This document shows positions 1-43,006 of a DNA stretch of 52,829 nucleotides, one piece after another. The stretch's first letter is position 1; each line of letters opens with the position of its first letter. The notes under the pieces are model-generated. The model ran no database searches. It was not told where the DNA came from and worked only from the letters and a program-made list of their open reading frames with translations. Position numbers and translations under genes: made by a program. Location: positions 1 through 52,829 of the forward strand of contig CAYVUR010000003.1 of the NCBI GenBank assembly GCA_964455185.1. The letters are read 5' to 3'. The stretch comes from an uncultured Gammaproteobacteria bacterium (GTDB lineage: Bacteria; Patescibacteriota; Patescibacteriia; 2-01-FULL-39-33).

Positions 1-104
1 TTCTTTAACAATTTATTTTATGAGGCAGCGCATTGGGTATAAGCTTAGTTTATACTTATTGCGCTGCCTCATGGGGAGACAGCCGTTAGCCAGAACGATT
101 CTGG
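1..104 (+). ncRNA. Candidate structured 5' leader RNA, copy A (upstream part cut by window edge)
   Basis: nt 1-55 and 57-104 are identical to 4301-4355 and 4365-4412. Perfect 12-bp GC-rich stem TGAGGCAGCGCA(21-32)/TGCGCTGCCTCA(60-71) encloses GTATAA(37-42)/TTATAC(50-55). Second hairpin CCAGAA(90-95)-cga-TTCTGG(99-104). SD GGAGG at 118-122, ATG at 132. Confidence 0.6.
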
Positions 105-131
105 TAAAATAGATATAGGAGGTTAATAACA

Positions 132-1001
132 ATGAAGGACCATATTACAGAAGAGAGAAAAAAGCAAATCGAAGAAATTATAGAAAATATTGTTAATCAA
201 GAAATTAAAAGTGGTTTTTTAAATCAGGCAAGAATTGAAAAACTTCTTAAAAAGAAGGAAGAATTTGAAGATTATATTATTAATGGAATTATAAAATTTT
301 CAAACCATGATGAGTTTGAGAATGAAGAAGTAGAATCAAATTTTTCTTATCCTGAGGAATATCGAATTAAAGAAGTAGACGAGCAAGTTGAAATTTTGAA
401 ACGTTTACTTCCTCAATTATCTGATGCAACTTATGATCGTGATATTATTAAACAGCCGCTTCCAGAGGGAAGCGAAGGATGGTTTGCTATACCTAGATCA
501 AAGCTGTTGTCATCAACATATAGTAATGCTGTTGATTTAGTTCTTTCAATAATTTCCTTAGAGAGAGGTTTAATTAATTATTGTTTAGGTAAGTTCAAAA
601 TAGATTTTCTACGCCGAAACGAAAGAACAATGAAAATGCTTAAGAAAATTAGTGACAAGCAGAAACAACATCGAATCCTTATAATACCATGTCAATTTGG
701 TATTAATCATCGTGGTCGCTCGGTTCGTAGAGTACGAGAAATTTTAAAACCTAATGAATTTGGACTTGGAGTATTTGAAGTTGCTTGCCTTCTTTTAACA
801 CATCCCGAACGTGAAATCAAACAAGAACAATTACATCTTTATTGTCCGGGTGATGATTTTGCTATTATGGAAGATATTTTTTGTCATGCTTTGTCTTTTA
901 ATTTCTTAAATAATTATGGTTTCCTTAACCTTAATTACTGTTGGTATTGTTATTTTTATGAAGACTATGGTTCTGCCACTGGATTTTTTTGTCCATACTG
1001 A
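132..1001 (+). CDS. Uncharacterised protein, paralog A (289 aa)
   Basis: Long ORF with GGAGG 9 nt upstream. Shares blocks EGWFAIP, PCQFG..GRSV, EFGLG.FEVACLLLTHPERE, QLH..CPG and GSATGF with the product of 4441-5189. No family recognised. Confidence 0.8.
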   Translation: MKDHITEERKKQIEEIIENIVNQEIKSGFLNQARIEKLLKKKEEFEDYIINGIIKFSNHDEFENEEVESNFSYPEEYRIKEVDEQVEILKRLLPQLSDATYDRDIIKQPLPEGSEGWFAIPRSKLLSSTYSNAVDLVLSIISLERGLINYCLGKFKIDFLRRNERTMKMLKKISDKQKQHRILIIPCQFGINHRGRSVRRVREILKPNEFGLGVFEVACLLLTHPEREIKQEQLHLYCPGDDFAIMEDIFCHALSFNFLNNYGFLNLNYCWYCYFYEDYGSATGFFCPY

Positions 1002-1012
1002 TATTTAATGGT

Positions 1013-1050
1013 GGGTTACTTATTAATTGCAATAAGTAACCCTTTTAATT
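1013..1050 (+). terminator. Intrinsic terminator after paralog A
   Basis: 12-bp stem GGGTTACTTATT(1013-1024)/AATAAGTAACCC(1031-1042) followed by TTTTAATTT. Confidence 0.7.
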
Positions 1051-1212: not shown

Positions 1213-3939
1213 ATGTCATTTTTAACTAAATTATTTGGAGATCCTAATATCAAGATAATTAAAGAATTAAAAGTAATTGTAGAAAAAATCAATGTTTTGG
1301 AAAAACAAATATCAGTTATGTCTGATGATGATTTAAGATCTCAAACTATAAAATTTAAAGAAAGATTAACTAAAGGCGAAACATTAGATGATTTATTGCC
1401 AGAAGCTTTCGCTACGGTGAGAGAGGCAGCTAAACGTGTTTTAGGTCAGCGGCATTTTGATGTTCAATTAATTGGAGGAATTGCTTTACATCGTGGACAT
1501 ATTGCTGAAATGCGTACAGGAGAAGGTAAAACTTTAACTGCCACCGCTCCATTATATCTTAACGCTCTAGTTGGCAGAGGGGTTCATTTAGTTACTGTTA
1601 ATGATTATTTATCTCGCATTCATGCTGATTGGATGGGTCGTATTTATAATTTTTTAGGCATGACAGTTGGTTGTATTCAGCAACAAAATATTTCTTATAA
1701 ATTTGATGCTAATTATACTAGAAATGAAGGAGATCCAATTTTAGATGTACAAAATTTGGTACCATGTACTCGAAAAGAAGCTTATGCTTGCGATATTTTA
1801 TATGGCACTAATAATGAATTTGGTTTTGATTATTTACGTGATAATATGGTGCAAAGATTAGAGGATGTGGTACAACGTGAACTATATTATGCTATTGTTG
1901 ATGAAGTTGATTCTATTTTAATTGATGAAGCTCGTACTCCTTTAATTATTTCTGCTCCTGACACTGAATCAACTAATAAATATATTCAATTTACTCAAAT
2001 TGTAAAACAGTTAAAATTAGAAGAAGATTATAAAGTTGATGAAAAATTACGTGCTGCTACTTTAACTGAAAGGGGAATTGCTAAAGTAGAAAAAATGTTG
2101 GGTGTGGAAAATATTTATACTGATCGTGGTATTACTGAGGTGCATCATATTGAACAAGCATTAAAAGCTCATGCTCTTTTTAAGCGTGATAAAGATTATG
2201 TAGTTAAAGATGGTGAAATTATTATCATTGATGAATTTACTGGACGTATGATGTTTGGTCGTCGTTATAGTGAAGGATTACATCAGGCTATAGAAGCTAA
2301 AGAAGGTGTTAAAATACAGAAAGAAAGTATAACTTTAGCTACTATATCATTTCAAAATTATTTTAGATTGTATGAAAAATTAGCTGGTATGACTGGTACA
2401 GCTGCTACTGAAGCAGAAGAATTTTCTAAAATTTATAATTTAGAAGTTACTACTATTCCTACTAATCGACCCATGATTAGAAAAGATTTAAATGATCGTA
2501 TTTATAAAACTGAACAAGGAAAGTTTCAGGCTTTAGTTCGTGAAGTTAAACAACGACATGAGAAAGGTCAACCAATTTTAATTGGTACAATTTCTATTGA
2601 AAAGAATGAAATTTTAGCAGAATTATTGGAACGAGAAGGAATTACTTGTCAGGTACTTAATGCTAAACATCATGATAAAGAAGCACATATAATTGCTCAA
2701 GCAGGACGTTTAGGCGCAGTTACAGTTGCTACTAATATGGCGGGGCGTGGTGTTGATATTATTTTAGGAGGTTATCCTTTTAATCAACAAGAATATGATA
2801 AAGTAGTAGCTGCTGGCGGTTTATGTGTACTTGGTACAGAACGTCATGAATCACGGCGTATTGATAATCAATTACGTGGTCGCGCTGGACGTCAAGGAGA
2901 TCCTGGTGTATCACAATTTTATATTTCTATGGATGATGATTTAATGCGTATTTTTGGTGCTGAACGTATTAAAAAAATGATGACAACTTTAGGCTTACCT
3001 GATGATATGCCAATTGAAAATCGTATGGTGTCTAAATCTGTAGAACAAGCACAGAAAAAGGTTGAAACTTATAATTTTGATATTAGAAAACATTTAGTTG
3101 AGTATGATGATGTCATGAATAAACAAAGAGAAACGATTTATCGTAAACGTAGACAATTATTAAAAGGAGAAGGAATAAAAGAAGCAGTAATAGAAGCAAT
3201 TAATAATGAAATTGATATAATTGTTGATACTTATTTAGCTAGCAATAATGAGAATGATTGGGATTTAGAACAAATATATAAAGATATTAGTGTAATTTTT
3301 CCTATTAAAGAAGAAGCAAAGAAGACTTTAACAGATTTAAAGAAGGAAGCTGGTGATCGTCAGGAAGATTTTATGGCTCGAGAAGCTATTGCTGGTTATA
3401 TTAAAAAAATAGCTATTGAAACTTATAATGATTTAGAAACTCAAATTAATTTGCTTGATGATGGTCATCAAGAATTGCCACCAATGCGTCAAGTGGAAAG
3501 AGGTATTTGTTTAAATGTAATTGATTCTTTATGGATTGAACATTTAGAAACAATGCAATATTTACGTACTAGCATTGGTTTGCGTGGTTATGGACAACGT
3601 GATCCTTTAGTTGAATATAAAAAAGAATCATTAAGAATGTTTCGTGAGTTATTAAAAATGATTGATCGTCAAATCGCTTATAGCATATATAAAATTGGTT
3701 TTGTTTCTCCTCAAGAAATAAGTTCTAAAAAACAAATAAATAATTTACAATTTTCAGGAGCTAACGAAAAATCAGCTTTTGAGGCTGATGAAGGATTAAA
3801 ACAAAGAAATTCAGATAAGATTTTACAAGATAAAAATCATTTTAATGGAGCAAGAGTGGGGCGTAATGATCCATGTCCTTGCGGCGCTACTTGGCCAGAT
3901 GGTAGTCCTAAAAAATATAAAAAATGTTGTGGAAGATAA
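1213..3939 (+). CDS. secA: Preprotein translocase ATPase SecA
   Basis: 908 aa. [12 protein letters not shown] start, motor motifs MRTGEGKTL and [29 protein letters not shown]-terminal Cys-rich Zn motif CPCG...CCG. Confidence 0.97.
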
Positions 3940-3940
3940 T

Positions 3941-4252
3941 ATGTATCAACGACCATATAATCTTAAAGAGATAAAAAAGAATTATCCTAATAAACTTAAA
4001 AAGTTATTAACAGATGAAGTTCATCTGTGGCGAGCTAAAACAGGAATTGAGTTAATACATAAAGAACCAACTTTAAAAGAACAAAAAAGAATCTGGAGAA
4101 ATTGGAAGCAAATGACAGATGAAATGAAGAAAAAAAGTGATAAAAAGAGTATTGAAATTTTTGGAAAAGATAATATAACAAATCATAAAGAAATTATGCA
4201 AAATTGGAATAAAAGTAAAAATTTTTATAAAAAGATAAATGATAAAGTATAA
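3941..4252 (+). CDS. Small Lys/Trp-rich hypothetical protein (103 aa)
   Basis: ATG at 3941 lies 1 nt after the secA stop. The track ORF start at 3845 lies inside secA. No recognised family. Confidence 0.5.
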   Translation: MYQRPYNLKEIKKNYPNKLKKLLTDEVHLWRAKTGIELIHKEPTLKEQKRIWRNWKQMTDEMKKKSDKKSIEIFGKDNITNHKEIMQNWNKSKNFYKKINDKV

Positions 4253-4260
4253 ATTATAAT

Positions 4261-4289
4261 TTGACAAAATAGTTGTTTTTTAATAAAAT
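4261..4289 (+). promoter_or_regulatory. Sigma70-type promoter driving leader copy B and paralog B
   Basis: TTGACA(4261-4266), 17-nt spacer, TAAAAT(4284-4289). Predicted TSS is near 4296, a few nt before the conserved leader begins at 4301. Confidence 0.6.
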
Positions 4290-4300
4290 ATCTACATTAG

Positions 4301-4412
4301 TTCTTTAACAATTTATTTTATGAGGCAGCGCATTGGGTATAAGCTTAGTTTATACCTTTATACCTATTGCGCTGCCTCATGGGGAGACAGCCGTTAGCCA
4401 GAACGATTCTGG
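4301..4412 (+). ncRNA. Candidate structured 5' leader RNA, copy B
   Basis: Identical to copy A except that 9 nt (4356-4364) replace A56. Stem 4321-4332/4368-4379. Inner stem GGTATAA(4336-4342)/TTATACC(4350-4356, or the duplicated 4358-4364). Hairpin CCAGAA(4398-4403)/TTCTGG(4407-4412). Confidence 0.6.
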
Positions 4413-4440
4413 AAGAAAAGTAGGTATAGGAGAGCTAATT

Positions 4441-5118
4441 ATGAGCATGAACTCTTCCGCTGCAGTTTCGAAAAGTAATTTTAATCTTCCTGTTATTAGA
4501 AGAGGAGTAGGAGTGACATATCCTAAAGGATATGTCATTAAAAGTATTGAAGAACAAGTAGCTATCTTAATGGGCTTTTTCCCTAAGGAATTAGAGGGAG
4601 CAAAATATGATAAAGATATTATTAATAATTATCAACTTCCTAATAATTCTGAGGGATGGTTTGCTATTCCTGATTGGAATAGTATAGCCTCAACCTATTT
4701 TGAAGCTACTAACAAAGTATTAACAGCAATTAGTTTTACAAGAAAATTTTGTAATCATCTTAAGGTTTTATGTGGTGAAAATCAAGTTTCAAATTTTTGT
4801 TTAAAACAAAATGATAAAACTTTACAGATGATTCAAAAAATTAAAGAGCATCAGAAAAACAATAAAATCATTGTTTTTCCTTGTCAATTTGGACGACGCT
4901 ATCAAGGTCGTTCGGTGTATTTGGTAAGAAAAACTATAGAAAACAAGAAAAAAGAATTTGGTTTAGGTTTATTTGAAGTTGCCTGTCTTCTTTTAACACA
5001 TCCTGAGAGAGAGAGAAGAGGTGGCAACAATTACATGTTGATTGTCCTGGTAGCGATGTTATTGATATCAATAATCAATTTAAAAATGCACCTTATTTTT
5101 GTTTTTATTCTCGCCTAA
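4441..5118 (+). CDS. Uncharacterised protein, paralog B; frame is lost at the (GA)6 tract, so residues after ~HPERE are out of frame
   Basis: ATG 4441 is preceded by TATAGGAG, as in copy A. Similarity to paralog A runs through LLLTHPERE (to about 5015). It then continues in another frame (5007-5189). The TTG start at 4333 used by the ORF track lies inside the leader stem. Confidence 0.6.
   Translation: MSMNSSAAVSKSNFNLPVIRRGVGVTYPKGYVIKSIEEQVAILMGFFPKELEGAKYDKDIINNYQLPNNSEGWFAIPDWNSIASTYFEATNKVLTAISFTRKFCNHLKVLCGENQVSNFCLKQNDKTLQMIQKIKEHQKNNKIIVFPCQFGRRYQGRSVYLVRKTIENKKKEFGLGLFEVACLLLTHPERERRGGNNYMLIVLVAMLLISIINLKMHLIFVFILA
5005..5016 (+). repeat. (GA)6 dinucleotide repeat at the frameshift point of paralog B
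   Basis: gagagagagaga read directly from the sequence. Removing one GA unit joins ...HPERE to KRWQQLHVDCPGSDV... in frame. Confidence 0.9.
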
Positions 5119-5189
5119 ACTTAGAGGCAACCTGGATTAAAAATTCTGATATCAAATTCGGTTCTGCTACCGGATTTCTATATGATTGA
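5007..5189 (+). pseudogene. Out-of-frame C-terminal segment of paralog B
   Basis: This frame encodes EREKRWQQLHVDCPGSDV...FGSATGFLYD*. It aligns to the paralog A C-terminus (EQLHLYCPGDDF...YGSATGFFCPY*). A stop at 5004-5006 closes this frame upstream. Confidence 0.65.
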
Positions 5190-5226: not shown

Positions 5227-5279
5227 AAGGATTATTTACAATTACAAATTAAATTGTAAATAATCCTTTTTTATTTTTT
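5227..5279 (+). terminator. Intrinsic terminator after paralog B
   Basis: 17-bp stem AAGGATTATTTACAATT(5227-5243)/AATTGTAAATAATCCTT(5252-5268) followed by a T-run. Confidence 0.75.
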
Positions 5280-6266: not shown

Positions 6267-6698
6267 TTAGAAATTAAGTAAAAGCCAGTAAAATATCAAA
6301 GATAAAATTATTCCTAAAATTAATCCAACAATAACTTCTTTTAAAGAGTGCCCAATTCTTTCTTGTATTTGTATCTCTGGATTATTAGGAAAAATTTCTT
6401 GTGCTAGCATGTTAGTTAAAACAGCATTATAACCAATTTCTCGACGAAAACCAATAGCATCTCGAATAACAATTAGTGCCAAAATTAAAGCGATGGCAAA
6501 AGCAGCGCTATTTAATCCTTCACGTAAAAAAACAACAGTAGCTAATGATGCTACAAAGGCGGTATGAGCTGAAGGCATACCGCCGTAATCTTTATAAAGA
6601 TGTTGCCAATTAAGATTATTTGGTATACCATCAATAGTAAGCTTAATAATTTGAGTTATAAATCCTACTAAAATTGGTATAATGATTAATGAATACAT
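6267..6698 (-). CDS. Divergent PAP2-family membrane phosphatase-like protein (YuiD/DUF212-like)
   Basis: 143 aa, about 4 TM segments, GGMPSAHTAFVASLA motif. Confidence 0.75.
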   Translation of the reverse strand: MYSLIIIPILVGFITQIIKLTIDGIPNNLNWQHLYKDYGGMPSAHTAFVASLATVVFLREGLNSAAFAIALILALIVIRDAIGFRREIGYNAVLTNMLAQEIFPNNPEIQIQERIGHSLKEVIVGLILGIILSLIFYWLLLNF

Positions 6699-6710
6699 AA
6701 ATTTTTATTT

Positions 6711-7541
6711 ATGGATTATATTTTAGCCATAATTGCCGGATTAATTCAGGGCACTACAGAATTTTTACCAATCTCTTCTTCAGGTCATTTGGTTTTGTTT
6801 CATGAAATAATGAGATTTAATTTTTCTAATAGTCTGTTATTTGACATAGTGCTTCATTTAGGTACCTTAGTTGCTTTACTTATTTGTTTTTGGCGTGATT
6901 TATTAAAGATAATTAAAGGTTTTTTTCAGAGTATTATTAGATGGAATGTTTCTCAAGATATTAATCAGAAATTAGCTTGGATTGTTGTTTTAGGAACTAT
7001 TCCCGCGGCCTTGATTGGTTATTTTTTTGAAGATATTATCACCTCAATTTTTCATGAAGGTGACTTAGCAGCAATTGTAGTAACTTTTATGTTAGCTTTA
7101 ATTGCTTTGCTTTTTTTGTATATAGAAAAAATTGCTACTAAAAATCGTGAAATTACTAATCTTAATTGGTTTGATTCTCTTATAATTGGTTTAGCTCAAT
7201 CTATGGCTTTAATTCCAGGCACTTCGCGTTCCGGTATTACTATTATAACAGGAATGTGGTTCGGATTAAAGCGTGAGGCAGCGGCTAAATTTTCTTTTTT
7301 ATTATCAATACCTATTATTCTTGGTGCCGGCCTTAAATCTATATTAGATATTGAATCTATTAATAATGAAGAAATTAGTTTATTATTAGTTGGTTTTTTA
7401 TCTGCAGCTATATCTGGAATAGTTGTTGTTAAATTTTTATTGAAATATCTTGAACGTCATTCTTTATCAATTTTTGCTTGGTACCGTTTGATTTTAGCGG
7501 CAGTAATTTTTTTGTGGTTAATTTTCAATATTGGTAATTAA
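6711..7541 (+). CDS. uppP: Undecaprenyl-diphosphate phosphatase (BacA/UppP)
   Basis: 276 aa polytopic protein. EFLPISSSGHL and PGTSRSG motifs. Confidence 0.93.
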   Translation: MDYILAIIAGLIQGTTEFLPISSSGHLVLFHEIMRFNFSNSLLFDIVLHLGTLVALLICFWRDLLKIIKGFFQSIIRWNVSQDINQKLAWIVVLGTIPAALIGYFFEDIITSIFHEGDLAAIVVTFMLALIALLFLYIEKIATKNREITNLNWFDSLIIGLAQSMALIPGTSRSGITIITGMWFGLKREAAAKFSFLLSIPIILGAGLKSILDIESINNEEISLLLVGFLSAAISGIVVVKFLLKYLERHSLSIFAWYRLILAAVIFLWLIFNIGN

Positions 7542-7546
7542 AATGA

Positions 7547-8266
7547 TTATTTTTTAAAAATAATCATTTTAATTAATATTAATAGATAAGCAATAATAAT
7601 TATTATTATATCTATATATTTTTCTAAGAAAAATAATGATTGATAAATTACATCTTTTATATTAATATACTCATTATCATAAGTCATTTTTTTAGTAATG
7701 GGATATGTATTATCATTATTATAAATTTCTGATTTTCCAGGGATTCTAGTTCCAAATAATTGAACTACAATATTGGTTTTTCTATTTTCAAAAATACCTC
7801 CCAAACTAGCAATACCAATCTCTTGAAATTCTCTTCTTTCAATATTTTCTCTGTGTTTATCACTTTTTATCCAAGCATCAAATAATTCTTGACTATTAGA
7901 AAAATCTATAGCAAGATTTTCACCAGCATAAAAATATGGATAACCAGATTCTTTTATCCAATAAGAAAAACGTCGACCGTCTGGAGAGGTGTGACTAAAA
8001 TAATTTTTTTCTAAAATGTCTTTAGCTTTATTAATAGCTGCTTGAGTTAATCGGGGATTGGGTATAAGTTCATTTAAGCCATGATTTAATCTATATTGAT
8101 TAGTTAAATTTATTAATTCTTCTGCTTGGGCTCCACCATAAGGTTGTGATATTTCTATTATTGGATTATTAAATCTTTCTAAAAATAAAAATCCAGCCAA
8201 TATTATTTTAGCTATTATTAAAAATACACCGCAAAGTATTATTATTTTTTCTATTTTCTCAATCAT
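7547..8266 (-). CDS. Membrane-anchored CAP/SCP (YkwD-like) domain protein
   Basis: N-terminal TM helix, then the CAP-domain pattern YRLNHGLNEL...FSHTSPDG...GENLA. C-terminal hydrophobic tail. Confidence 0.7.
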   Translation of the reverse strand: MIEKIEKIIILCGVFLIIAKIILAGFLFLERFNNPIIEISQPYGGAQAEELINLTNQYRLNHGLNELIPNPRLTQAAINKAKDILEKNYFSHTSPDGRRFSYWIKESGYPYFYAGENLAIDFSNSQELFDAWIKSDKHRENIERREFQEIGIASLGGIFENRKTNIVVQLFGTRIPGKSEIYNNDNTYPITKKMTYDNEYINIKDVIYQSLFFLEKYIDIIIIIIAYLLILIKMIIFKK

Positions 8267-8313
8267 TAATATTATTTTAGCATAAATTTAAATGATATGT
8301 TAGAATAAAAGAT

Positions 8314-9327
8314 ATGAAAAAGTTTATTATAATTATAATAATTTTAATATTTTTAATATTAAGTTCTTCTTTCTTGTTTTTAGCTTATGGTCCAGGAGGA
8401 TTTAATCAACAAATTGAATTTACTGTACAAGAGAATTTTGGCGCTTCTAGTATTGCTAATGAACTTAAAGCTAAAGGTTTAATTCGTAGTAAAATAGTTT
8501 TTAAACTTTTAGCTAGATTTTCTGGCTTGGAAAATAAATTAATAGCAGGAACTCATGTTTTTCCAGCACGAGCCAGTATAGCTGATATTCTTAAATTACT
8601 TAGCTTAAAACAATTATCATCTAGAGAAGTGAAAATAACTATTATTGAAGGTTGGAAAATTAAAGATATTGCTGAATATCTTAAAAATCAAGGTTTTTTT
8701 ACTGAAGAGGATTTTTTAGAAGCAGCAAAAATTAATAATTGGAAAAGTTTTTATTATTTTTTAGATGACCCACAAATAAAGACACTTGAAGGATATCTTT
8801 TTCCTGATACTTATATTGTTTATCGGGATGCTAAACCCGAAGATATTATTAAAAAAATGCTTGATAATTTTAAAAATAAAATTAATTCTGAGATATTAAT
8901 TGATTTAAAAAATAGTGGACGTAGTTTGCATGAAGCAATCATTTTAGCTTCTATTATTGAAAAAGAAGCGCTTTATGATGAGGATCGCTATATGATTAGT
9001 GATATTTTTCTTAAGAGATTAAAAGAAGGAATAGGATTGCAATCTGATGCTACAGTTAATTATGTAACTGGCAAAAAAACCTTACGTCCTAGTGCTAAAG
9101 ACCTTAAAATTGATTCGCCTTATAATACTTATAAATATAGAGGTTTGCCTCCGGGACCAATTTGTAATCCGGGATTAAGTTCAATTATAGCTTCAGTTTA
9201 TCCTAAATCTAATCCTTATTTTTATTTTTTAACCGATAATGAAGGACGAGCTCATTTTGCTAAAACTTATAATGAACATTTAATTAATATTGCTAAATAC
9301 CTTGATAAAAATAATAATTCTTTATAA
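8314..9327 (+). CDS. mltG: Endolytic murein transglycosylase MltG (YceG-like)
   Basis: N-terminal TM helix. LASIIEKEA, PPGPICNPG, YFYFLTDNEGRAHFAKTYNEH. Confidence 0.88.
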   Translation: MKKFIIIIIILIFLILSSSFLFLAYGPGGFNQQIEFTVQENFGASSIANELKAKGLIRSKIVFKLLARFSGLENKLIAGTHVFPARASIADILKLLSLKQLSSREVKITIIEGWKIKDIAEYLKNQGFFTEEDFLEAAKINNWKSFYYFLDDPQIKTLEGYLFPDTYIVYRDAKPEDIIKKMLDNFKNKINSEILIDLKNSGRSLHEAIILASIIEKEALYDEDRYMISDIFLKRLKEGIGLQSDATVNYVTGKKTLRPSAKDLKIDSPYNTYKYRGLPPGPICNPGLSSIIASVYPKSNPYFYFLTDNEGRAHFAKTYNEHLINIAKYLDKNNNSL

Positions 9328-9338
9328 TTTTTTAAATT

Positions 9339-9366
9339 TTGACTAGATAGTTTTTCTTGTTATAAT
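9339..9366 (+). promoter_or_regulatory. Sigma70-type promoter for the S41 peptidase gene
   Basis: TTGACT(9339-9344), 16 nt, TATAAT(9361-9366). Confidence 0.5.
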
Positions 9367-9389
9367 ATTTATAATTAAATTTATATAAA

Positions 9390-10682
9390 ATGTCAGAATT
9401 AAAAGAAAATAAAAAAATAAAATTTTTAAATAAACCAGTTTCTCTTTGGGTTGGTTTATTATTTGTTTTTTTAGCTTTTACTAGTGGGGTTTTAGCGGGA
9501 GGAAGTGGTCAGTTTTTAAATAATCAAATTATAATTAAAGGAGCTGATCCAGTTTACGCTACTTCAAGTTCAAGTGATAGTGGCAATGTAACTAACACTA
9601 AAGCAGAATTACCAAGTTATCTTCAAAAAGATGTTGATTTTAATCTTTATTGGAAAACTTGGAATATAATAAAAAGTAAATTTTATGATAAAAATGTTTT
9701 AGATACCAAACTTTTTTACGGGTCTTTAGCAGGATTAGTTTCTGCTTTAGGTGATCCATATTCTGTTTTTATGACTCCCAGCGATGCTGATGAATTTCAA
9801 AAAGATTTAGAAGGCAGTTTTGAGGGTGTGGGTATGGAAATAGCCATTAAAAATAACCAATTGATAGTTGTTTCGCCTTTAGAAGATTCGCCAGCTATGA
9901 AGGCTGGTTTACGTCCCAAAGATTGGATTATTAGAATAGATGGTGTTAGTACAGAGAAAATGAGTGCTGCTCAAGCTGTAAAATTAATCAGAGGACCCAA
10001 AGGAACAAAAGTCAAATTATCTATTTATAGAGAAGGAGCTAAGGATATTCAAGAAATAGAAGTTACTCGTGACGTAATTAATGTTAAAAGTTTAACTTGG
10101 GAATACAAAGCAAATGGATCAATTATTTGGATTAAAGTTAGACAATTTAATGATGATACAATTCCTTTATTTGATAAGGCAATCAAGGAAATAATTGCCA
10201 AAAAGAATGTTAAAGGTGTGATTCTTGATTTACGCAATAATCCTGGTGGTTATCTTGATACGGCTATTGCTATGGCTGGAGAATGGGATGGAGAGCAAGT
10301 TGTTGTTTCAGAAAGAAATAGAGAAGGTCAAGAGATTAAACATATTGCTAATTCTGTAGCTCGACTTAAAAATTACAAAACCGTAGTTTTAATAGATGCT
10401 GGTAGCGCTTCAGCTTCAGAAATTGTTGCAGGAGCTTTACAAGATTGGAAAAAAGCAACTATAGTTGGCATGAAATCATTTGGTAAAGGCTCAGTTCAGG
10501 ATTTAACTAATTTACCTGATGGTTCACAGATTAAATTAACTATTGCTAAATGGTTTACTCCCAATGGTCGTAGCATTGATGAACATGGCATTGAACCAGA
10601 TATTAAAGTTGATTTAACTGATGAAGATTATAATAAAGATCTTGACCCACAATTAGATAAAGCTTTAGAATTATTGAAATAG
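9390..10682 (+). CDS. Carboxy-terminal processing peptidase, family S41 (with PDZ domain)
   Basis: TM anchor, PDZ region, GVILDLRNNPGGYL, GSASASEI (Ser), FGKGSVQ (Lys). Confidence 0.9.
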   Translation: MSELKENKKIKFLNKPVSLWVGLLFVFLAFTSGVLAGGSGQFLNNQIIIKGADPVYATSSSSDSGNVTNTKAELPSYLQKDVDFNLYWKTWNIIKSKFYDKNVLDTKLFYGSLAGLVSALGDPYSVFMTPSDADEFQKDLEGSFEGVGMEIAIKNNQLIVVSPLEDSPAMKAGLRPKDWIIRIDGVSTEKMSAAQAVKLIRGPKGTKVKLSIYREGAKDIQEIEVTRDVINVKSLTWEYKANGSIIWIKVRQFNDDTIPLFDKAIKEIIAKKNVKGVILDLRNNPGGYLDTAIAMAGEWDGEQVVVSERNREGQEIKHIANSVARLKNYKTVVLIDAGSASASEIVAGALQDWKKATIVGMKSFGKGSVQDLTNLPDGSQIKLTIAKWFTPNGRSIDEHGIEPDIKVDLTDEDYNKDLDPQLDKALELLK

Positions 10683-42705: not shown

Positions 42706-42776
42706 CTCGGGGACAGGGATTCGAACCCCGATAGCCAGGACCAAAACCTGGAGTCCTACCATTAGACGATCCCCGA
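42706..42776 (-). tRNA. tRNA-Gln (anticodon UUG), CCA not encoded
   Basis: Hand-folded. Acceptor TCGGGGA/TCCCCGA (U1-A72), D arm identical to the CUG isoacceptor, anticodon arm CCAGG-TTTTGGT-CCTGG, T arm CGGGG-TTCGAAT-CCCTG, discriminator G followed by TTA. 71 nt. Confidence 0.9.
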
Positions 42777-42806: not shown

Positions 42807-42918
42807 AATTGATTATTTGTCTTTACTTGTAAGAACGCTAAGAACGTTTAGCAATCCTTTTCTCTTATAATTGATTATTATTTATCTTTTTTATAAGAAC
42901 GTTTAGTGATTCTTTCTT
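42807..42918. repeat. Degenerate tandem duplication (~55-62 nt period)
   Basis: AATTGATTA (42807-42815 and 42869-42877) and AAGAACGTTTAG (42840-42851 and 42895-42906) recur in the same order. The right unit covers the 3' end of the small ORF. The left unit is a decayed copy. Confidence 0.6.
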
Positions 42919-43006
42919 CTTCTAATTTTTTCTTAATACTCTTTTTCTTTTCAATTCTTACTAATCTAGGAACTTTGATTCTTGGATCTTTCTTTCTTTT
43001 TGGCAT
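42878..43006 (-). CDS. Speculative 42-aa highly basic peptide
   Basis: My translation: MPKRKKDPRIKVPRLVRIEKKKSIKKKLEEERITKRSYKKDK*. A consensus promoter lies 33 nt upstream. No family recognised. Confidence 0.4.
   Translation of the reverse strand: MPKRKKDPRIKVPRLVRIEKKKSIKKKLEEERITKRSYKKDK

Follow-up and report, generated by a model that had tools for sequence, protein, structure and literature searches.

The window considered here is the 52,829-nt contig CAYVUR010000003.1 (the whole stretch of DNA that was analysed) of an uncultured bacterium of the Patescibacteriota, and it carries two copies of a GC-rich leader, copy A at the window start and copy B in front of a second, paralogous gene. 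The element is very probably a functional structured leader RNA and, judging from its comparison across genomes, is a member of a family of structured cis-acting leaders that is widespread in Patescibacteria and has not yet been catalogued. Positions 1-55 of the window were identical to 4301-4355 (100%), and positions 57-104 matched 4365-4412 base for base, confirming what an earlier note made from the letters of this DNA alone had stated. Compared with copy A, copy B has C instead of T56, and in the apical portion of hairpin P1 8 nt are duplicated in tandem (tttatacc x2). The leader had a GC content of 41%, compared with 13-18% in the adjacent spacers and about 30% in coding DNA, and is indeed a local GC-rich island as had been claimed. 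Both mismatch-tolerant pattern searches and a covariance-model scan with the filters off detected exactly two leader copies in the 52.8-kb window.

Copy A is truncated by the window start, as two other assemblies of the same genome (L001 and L002) add one conserved 5' G. Its predicted promoter, TTTATA-17-TATACT, was read in L001 and ends 4 nt before a boxA-like element. This element (1-10), an alternative helix (Alt) and a pseudoknot are parts that lay beyond the account of the earlier note. The features of the two copies and their genes are as follows.

1..10, + strand: boxA-like element of copy A, (G)TTCTTTAACA; the leading G lies one base before the window (L001 5869)
11..19, + strand: spacer between boxA and P1, copy A; boxA and spacer had no consensus structure in RNAalifold
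20..72, + strand: hairpin P1, copy A; lower stem UGAGGCAGCGCA / UGCGCUGCCUCA, upper stem and loop variable
76..83, + strand: Alt strand GAGACAGC, copy A; complementary to the P1 3' arm at 63-70 (7/8 pairs)
84..86, + strand: pseudoknot strand CGU, copy A; pairs with the P2 loop ACG at 95-97
90..104, + strand: hairpin P2, CCAGA-ACGAU-UCUGG, copy A; all 5 pairs with compensatory changes
117..134, + strand: Shine-Dalgarno sequence (SD) AGGAGG at 117-122 and start codon ATG at 132-134, copy A
132..1001, + strand: gene A, 289 aa, family-1 core with an N-terminal helical module
1013..1042, + strand: intrinsic terminator of gene A (L001 6882-6911)
4261..4289, + strand: promoter of copy B, TTGACA-17-TAAAAT (11/12 matches)
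4300..4310, + strand: boxA-like element of copy B, GTTCTTTAACA; about +4 to +14 of the predicted transcript
4320..4380, + strand: hairpin P1, copy B, with the apical 8-nt tandem duplication
4384..4394, + strand: Alt strand (4384-4391) and pseudoknot strand CGU (4392-4394) of copy B, same as in copy A
4398..4412, + strand: hairpin P2, copy B
4441..5189, + strand: gene B, family-1 paralogue without the N-terminal module
5227..5268, + strand: intrinsic terminator of gene B

As every copy has its own predicted sigma-70-type promoter and every gene its own intrinsic terminator, each copy is predicted to head a self-contained cassette composed of promoter, leader, open reading frame (ORF) and terminator. 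A small ORF without a family match is located at window 3845-4252, after secA and directly before the copy B promoter; in L001 the call for this ORF is 103 aa long (window ~3941-4252).

Fold of the leader

From 5' to 3', the leader consists of the boxA-like element, a spacer, P1, the Alt strand, a CGY triplet, P2, an A-rich tail and the SD. P1 is a single hairpin of approximately 24 bp (25-26 bp in a variant with an extra G-C pair), joining the 12-bp stem and the inner stem that had been drawn by hand as separate parts. RNAfold gave -51 and -57 kcal/mol for the two copies (z = -7.2 and -6.9), and equally stable folds were obtained in 0/200 shuffles. In alignment A6, comprising 83 distinct sequences, compensatory changes were detected at 17 of the 24 modelled pairs of P1 with 90.3% of the cells paired, and at 5/5 pairs of P2 with 98.1% paired. 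The pairing of P1 and P2 together was 91.5%, compared with 74.1% in column shuffles and 31-43% in slid registers. Double changes occurred at 22 of 29 pairs and in 438 cells against 133 expected, and none of 500 shuffles reached any of these measures. The two hand-drawn helices were thus real, with z of about -7 and abundant compensatory changes in both. The frequent G-U pairs (e.g. 55 and 44 cells at two positions), together with antisense covariance-model matches that were limited to the palindromic hairpin and scored 60-90 bits lower, indicated that the element is an RNA and not a DNA palindrome. The earlier proposal of a functional structured untranslated RNA of the sense strand was therefore upheld by cross-genome conservation and compensatory change.

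The stretch GGGGAGACAGCCGUUAG, which had been regarded as single-stranded, contains two pairing elements, the Alt strand and the pseudoknot strand. The Alt strand is nearly a copy of the P1 5' arm and complements the P1 3' arm, and Alt and P1 are mutually exclusive. The Alt helix was 94.5% paired compared with 33-50% in slid controls, and double changes occupied 30 of its cells, the shuffles giving 14.3 +/- 3.5. After in silico removal of the P1 5' half, Alt was present in the minimum free energy (MFE) structure of 66/69 leaders. The CGY triplet complements the P2 loop (RCG), where the variable pair was UG 28 times, UA 20 times, CG 14 times and CA 0 times, and rare compensated variants (CUC/GAG, CCU/AGG and CCG/CGG) were also seen. 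Pairing of the triplet with the loop amounted to 98.5% compared with 93.5 +/- 0.8 in shuffles, and CGY and P2 likely form an H-type pseudoknot. No terminator-like site was found in the leader. The suggestion that CCUC in the P1 3' arm could sequester the SD did not hold, as CCUC was kept in either P1 or the Alt helix and SD accessibility barely changed.

Several other interpretations of the fold were examined and rejected. When compared with the 23S/5S region of L163, one of the contigs bearing the motif, neither P1 nor the pseudoknot was meaningfully similar, disfavouring mimicry of rRNA. The inner P1 stem AUUGGGCGUAAG apparently resembles the 16S 560 region, but this likeness was not conserved in the family. 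A leader peptide starting from the AUG at the foot of P1 had neither an SD nor a conserved frame, and the substitution pattern was that of RNA pairs. As for variation within the genome, the JGI and ENA assemblies of the same genome have A in place of G at L001 5894 (window 25) in the P1 5' arm (gcagcAcat), which produces an A-C mismatch in the lower P1 stem and represents strain-level variation within a conserved helix.

The two window copies agreed at 103/104 positions plus one indel, even in the P1 apex that varies within the family, whereas leader pairs sharing one contig in other loci were merely 48-77% identical. Since genes A and B are old paralogues, this comparison pointed to gene conversion. 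The identity block begins at boxA and stops exactly at the end of P2, in agreement with the divergence that had been noticed immediately after the second hairpin, while the promoters and the SD-proximal flanks differ, suggesting that conversion was confined to the functional block. The near-identity probably reflects such concerted evolution on top of constraint. The argument that a leader better conserved than its own gene must be functional is consequently weak, gene conversion being probable, while its conclusion survives on the cross-genome evidence.

Distribution of the leader and the genes behind it

In a one-genome-per-species scan, 334 genomes encoded a relative of gene A, and 80 loci were fetched. 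The leader also preceded an orthologue of 43% protein identity in a GC-richer genome, where the small hairpin had undergone compensatory changes. After an nhmmer pass, an 18-sequence alignment (A3) was made, in which RNAalifold gave 29 pairs, 18 of them with compensatory changes, followed by the covariance models R1 (from A3) and the broader R2. Sense-strand matches of R1/R2 were located directly upstream of a family-1 gene in 45/85 loci, demonstrating conservation upstream of orthologues in other genomes, and the two models gave no other match over those 643 kb except before a tandem paralogue. Throughout approximately 1.3 Mb of loci, all full-length matches were sense-oriented and lay 20-90 nt before an SD and an ORF. 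A REP-like repeat (repetitive extragenic palindrome), which the earlier note had named as a possible refutation, was itself refuted by this constant position of the sense matches and by the presence of two copies in 52.8 kb.

An RNA-first search, in which metagenome contigs were scanned with a pattern of the hairpin arms and the following purine block only, yielded at least 120 stretches. Its analysis covers 80 loci with 82 matches listed, of which approximately 72 were clearly the same element with P2, SD and start codon downstream. Of these approximately 72 listed leaders, 21 preceded the family-1 core, 34 preceded a second core (family 2), and a few were found before other small proteins. 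The expected tie between the leader and homologues of the 132-1001 protein therefore held for the 45 loci mentioned above, but the RNA-first search met family 2 more often among its listed matches. Seen from its gene neighbourhoods, the leader is a shared module of a multi-family gene set that is not tied to one protein family. As the leader heads a second unrelated core family and a few others, its functions as an RNA partner of the encoded protein or in simple autoregulation, both raised previously, are unlikely.

Rfam cmscan gave no significant match to the leader, consistent with the earlier impression that it fits no known RNA family. With Rfam 15 at gathering thresholds, the whole window matched only RNase P, two tRNAs and, marginally, Rp_sR47 elsewhere. 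The region 4200-4500 at E <= 10 gave only microRNA-hairpin noise (19-30 bits compared with gathering thresholds of 54-100), and a scan at E <= 1 of seven loci carrying typical members of the family likewise gave only sub-threshold noise. Full-text literature searches for RNA motifs of Patescibacteria brought up no description of such an element. The marginal match, Rickettsia sRNA47 at window 10230-10533 on the minus strand (62.8 against a gathering threshold of 60 bits), is probably spurious in view of the AT-rich sequence and the unrelated phylum.

Variation of the leader was also observed. In the leaders before one family-2 subgroup (L116, L122, L130, L134, L164, L121 at 6325-6463, L153, L129 and L146), P2 is replaced by another version (UUUGAG-AUCGUAU-GCUCAAA), and a further hairpin (GCCUU...AAGGC) precedes the SD. 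Acidobacterial relatives of family 1 (Terracidiphilus/Acidobacteriaceae; L051, L062, L072 and L080) lack the leader and share another string approximately 100 nt upstream, GTGCCGATAA...ACAGAATCCA...GCGCG hairpin, which may be an unrelated leader. In some family-1 loci (e.g. L007, L008 and L010, at ~4001-4030), the stretch GGAGGATGACGATGACGACACAGTCGATCACGTC from the SD to codon 10 is conserved at the nucleotide level across genomes and tends to pair the AUG, whose unpaired probability is ~0 in many leaders. The window genes lack GGAGGATGACGATGACGACACAGTCGATCACGTC, which may be a second, translational element.

The proteins of genes A and B were 45% identical over 224 residues (E = 2e-59), contradicting the description that they align only in short blocks. 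The family-1 core has the signature EGWFAIP...QFG.RHRGRS...EFGLG...THPER. Relatives of gene A formed 819 protein-database clusters, nearly all from Patescibacteria and none annotated, and the family-1 protein had no match in Pfam, PADLOC, PHROGs or the PDB sequence profile. Its AlphaFold2 model was confident, with a predicted local distance difference test score (pLDDT) of 84.6, and Foldseek detected no structural neighbour of it in PDB or BFVD. A phage origin of the family was rejected, as only 4 relatives were found among 2.9 million viral contigs. Family 2 is a distinct core of approximately 200 residues with 1218 database clusters that are 70-85% identical across lineages; its AlphaFold2 model (pLDDT 40.8) was too poor for use, and Pfam matched neither family 2 nor the minor families. 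The hhalign probability of homology between the two cores was 0.9%, and they were thus treated as unrelated apart from their N-terminal modules.

These helical modules of approximately 60 aa are swapped between the two unrelated C-terminal cores. Three proteins have a family-1 module on a family-2 core, and the reverse combination is present at L136 and L123. Module-shuffling proteins were noted at L089, L121, L141, L136, L123, L103 and L098, an architecture resembling that of polymorphic effector families. Tandem arrays with one leader per gene occur in L102, L121, L159, L160 and the window itself. The frame of gene B is broken in the window by an additional GA unit at ~5005-5016, where the repeat is (GA)6 in the window and (GA)5 in both L001 and L002, of the same genome, which have an intact gene B of 248 aa. 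Possible origins of this additional unit are slipped-strand phase variation, heterogeneity within the population and an error of assembly.

The boxA-like element and possible modes of action

The conserved 5' end of the leader reads GTTCTTTAACA in the window and mostly GTTCTTTGAAA in other loci, and GTTCTTTAACA fits exactly GYTCTTTAANA, the search consensus of Baniulyte et al. 2017 (PMC5725501). The family profile was G 95%, Y 98%, T 93%, C 100%, Y 96%, T 100%, T 100%, N, A 82%, A 68% and A 93%, with positions 1-7 (GYTCYTT) thus 93-100% conserved. A match with at most one mismatch was present 13-17 nt before P1 in 57/72 RNA-first leaders, compared with 2.7% of random windows, although boxA formed no part of the RNA-first search pattern. 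The element lies 6-16 nt downstream of predicted -10 boxes, placing it near the predicted transcription start. RNAalifold showed no consensus pairing over boxA, which is predicted to be single-stranded. Sequestration of boxA through pairing with the semi-conserved spacer GGUUCAGAAC was rejected, as RNAalifold gave no consensus structure. boxA was also kept in orthologue leaders without P1 and P2, e.g. L012, L045 and L047; that of L044 lies directly against the SD. In a subgroup of leaders, the spacer between boxA and P1 contains a semi-conserved GGTTCAGAAC / AGGTTCAAAC that repeats the GTTC of boxA (A6 columns ~20-38, e.g. L102 486-497 and L117 2083-2092) and has no consensus pairing.

The mechanism we consider best supported, with a probability of roughly 40%, combines Nus recruitment at boxA with a P1/Alt refolding or processing switch. 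Nus recruitment is favoured because the leader shares the order of its parts with the lambda N leader, to which that of suhB has been compared, and this part of the mechanism stands a little below even odds; the processing or refolding step is more tentative. The nascent boxA would recruit NusB/S10, and thereby the Nus complex, to the elongating polymerase, and the tethered compact leader would limit ribosome access or modulate Rho-dependent termination, as proposed for suhB and the lambda N leader. Gene output would thus depend on how much of the rRNA transcription machinery is available. P1 would be the default co-transcriptional fold; as a near-perfect duplex directly after boxA, it resembles the RNase III hairpin that separates nutL from N. 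P1 has the size of an RNase III substrate (a continuous duplex of at least 20 bp, about two helical turns). Once the P1 5' arm was removed by processing, or held, the 3' arm could re-pair with Alt, and the Alt helix, which abuts the pseudoknot, could stack on it to give a new stable 5' structure uncoupled from boxA.

Several observations weigh against this mechanism. The Alt and pseudoknot helices are short and supported by few variable positions, and the search pattern for part of the alignment had fixed several Alt positions. The mean unpaired probability of the SD was 0.39 in the P1 state and 0.50 in the Alt state without the P1 5' half; as accessibility is nearly equal in both states, no simple expression platform is visible. 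The intrinsic terminator of each cassette argues against classical processive antitermination. The boxA consensus is an 11-nt AT-rich string, such strings are not rarer than chance in the window, and the significance of the element lies in its positional conservation. In the one rRNA leader that was read, that of the L163 23S gene, the boxA-like string approximately 150 nt before the 23S is AGAACTTTGAAAAG, which shares CTTTGAAAA with the consensus and has AA instead of YT at positions 2-3.

The L163 23S gene (6392-10582) is 4191 nt long compared with a model of 2925 positions, contains approximately 1.3 kb of insertions, has its own TTGACA-17-TACAAT promoter, and is preceded by neither a 16S gene nor a tRNA. 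L069 was discarded as a source of 23S, as its apparent match was a murB coding sequence. The string GTTCTTTGAAAA is a Gram-positive boxA, and the literature found shows it only as a Mycoplasma 16S-23S spacer primer. Elsewhere in the window, two 53-nt direct repeats (42839-42946), 55 nt apart and 77% identical, lie beside the tRNA gene at 42706-42776, and a boxA-like GTTCTTTAAAA is located on the same strand at 43822-43812.

A small-molecule or ion riboswitch, in which Alt, the pseudoknot and P2 would form the aptamer and P1 the anti-aptamer, appears unlikely. Binding of a ligand would shift the balance between the two and change translation, mRNA stability or Rho access. The mutually exclusive conserved helices, the conserved structured candidate aptamer supported by covariation, and the likely H-type pseudoknot, which has an unvarying C-G core and closely precedes the SD, all agree with such a switch. 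In addition, the conserved nucleotides cluster in Alt, the pseudoknot and the P2 loop while the P1 apex varies freely, and several gene families stand under one leader in a regulon-like manner. However, neither state has a terminator or an SD-sequestering pairing, and P1 (~24 bp), which arises earlier during transcription, greatly exceeds Alt (8-9 bp) in stability, a poor fit to a ligand switch. The fold has no multi-helix junction or large conserved unpaired core, the downstream genes give no hint of a metabolite (no Pfam match, transporter or enzyme of a known pathway), and the conserved boxA would be left without a role.

Binding of a dedicated RNA-binding protein other than the Nus factors, either a shared regulator or the encoded N-terminal helical modules in a feedback loop, is likewise improbable. 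The protein would bind to the pseudoknot, to the GAGRYRAG strand that occurs twice, or to the lower stem of P1, which is conserved. Invariant bases are present within paired regions (UGAG/CUCA and AGC/GCU), the same 9-nt sequence occurs twice, and the N-terminal modules are swapped between unrelated cores. Pseudoknots upstream of the SD are moreover typical of ribosomal-protein autoregulatory leaders. Nevertheless, the complementarity among the 5' arm, the 3' arm and Alt alone accounts for the sequence conservation, and no candidate regulator gene was linked to the cassettes. Feedback by the modules is also at odds with gene B and L158, which have the leader but no N-terminal module, and with the modules being of several types that are only loosely similar.

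A constitutive processing or stability element is a fairly remote alternative. P1 would be cut, e.g. by RNase III, and Alt and the pseudoknot would shield the mRNA from 5' exonuclease without signal-dependent regulation, while the boxA match would be fortuitous or concern elongation only. The length of P1 (~24-26 bp) fits an RNase III substrate, Alt became the MFE fold in nearly all leaders (66/69) after removal of the 5' half, and the near-consensus promoters suggest high expression. This alternative leaves unexplained the strict conservation and fixed spacing of boxA as well as its retention in leaders that lack P1.

An element devoid of RNA function, be it a mobile repeat, a palindrome or operator at the DNA level, or a patch left by recent gene conversion, is highly improbable: conversion probably occurred, given the excess likeness of the window copies over same-contig pairs, and the palindromic P1 scores on both strands, but dozens of distant genomes conserve the element with strand-specific compensatory and G-U changes, the identity block is bounded by boxA and P2 with differing promoters and SD-proximal flanks, and no dispersed or antisense-context copies were found in the window scan or in ~1.3 Mb of loci. 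A non-functional repeat, a DNA operator and a mobile element are effectively excluded.

Patescibacteria account for a large share of bacterial diversity and have tiny cells and genomes, few recognised regulators and many unannotated conserved proteins. The leader marks, and probably controls, a family of self-contained cassettes, several of which can share one contig. It constitutes a new RNA family and, at the same time, a guilt-by-association tag that joins protein families not linked by sequence comparison. If the interpretation of boxA is correct, Nus-factor control of mRNA would reach far outside Proteobacteria and would here be joined to a structural switch, for which there is no earlier description. 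A wider and more doubtful proposal is that the leader defines a post-initiation regulon throughout Patescibacteria, in which a Nus entry site is fused to a refolding hairpin/pseudoknot sensor. Expression of thousands of modular, multi-copy proteins whose fold is unknown would thereby depend on the state of the rRNA transcription machinery or on an unknown ligand, and the regulon would represent a new class of boxA-dependent riboregulator and a handle on the "dark matter" proteins of regulator-poor organisms.

Comparison with known systems

Small pseudoknotted riboswitches such as preQ1-I, SAM-II, guanidine-III and guanidine-II (mini-ykkC, with ACGR loops) are similar to the leader in having a short hairpin whose loop (here RCGNN) pairs with a nearby strand through a C-G core, and in the position of the hairpin approximately 15-25 nt before the SD. 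The present leader differs in that it had no Rfam match at E <= 10, the pseudoknot partner lies upstream of a single pentaloop hairpin, the SD is outside the fold, and the gene associations are unrelated.

In rRNA operons, boxA is necessary and sufficient for the assembly of the rRNA antitermination complex (rrnTAC) on the polymerase, and the spacing between boxA and boxC is 18-19 nt in Enterobacteriaceae rRNA leaders (PMC10250234). The rRNA leaders, in which boxB, boxA and boxC are followed by the leader strand of the processing helix, likewise have a strong promoter, boxA and a long helix starting within ~15-20 nt, compared with 13-17 nt here. In contrast to them, the helix of the present leader is a local hairpin and not a leader-trailer helix, an mRNA with an SD follows, and the boxA-like string of the single Patescibacterial 23S leader that was read deviates somewhat.

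A highly structured RNase III-sensitive region lies between nutL and the N start in lambda, and its cleavage uncouples translation from the Nus/N complex at nutL (Wilson et al. 1997, 2002, as cited in PMC5725501). Both this lambda leader and the present one have the order of boxA, a long structured region and the SD, and P1/Alt would permit an analogous uncoupling. The distance is ~130 nt here and ~200 nt in lambda, RNase III cleavage is hypothetical here, and no N-like protein is known. P1 is also distinct from boxB, which has a 5-bp stem and a GNRA-like loop of 5 nt, lies about 8 nt after boxA and is bound by an N protein. Assignment as a lambdoid nut site was rejected, as P1 is ~24 bp long with a variable loop and begins 13-17 nt after boxA, and no N-like gene was evident.

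The closest counterparts are the suhB-type leaders of E. coli and Salmonella, with rpsJ, prsA and others as candidates, in which boxA is likewise located in the 5' untranslated region of an mRNA near the transcription start (PMC5725501). Nus factors bound at boxA repress the translation of suhB and promote Rho termination, and the authors of that study described the suhB leader as "strikingly similar" to the lambda N leader (PMC5725501). boxA is near the SD in suhB, and the same holds here for L044 and L045 (within ~10-20 nt). The present family differs from the suhB type in its phylum and in heading multi-copy cassettes of unknown proteins instead of a gene for a Nus factor or translation. 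It further has approximately 110 nt of conserved structure after boxA, seen in no described boxA leader. Leaders of this putative kind, cis-regulatory and containing boxA, are known, and the leader family described here appears to be new.

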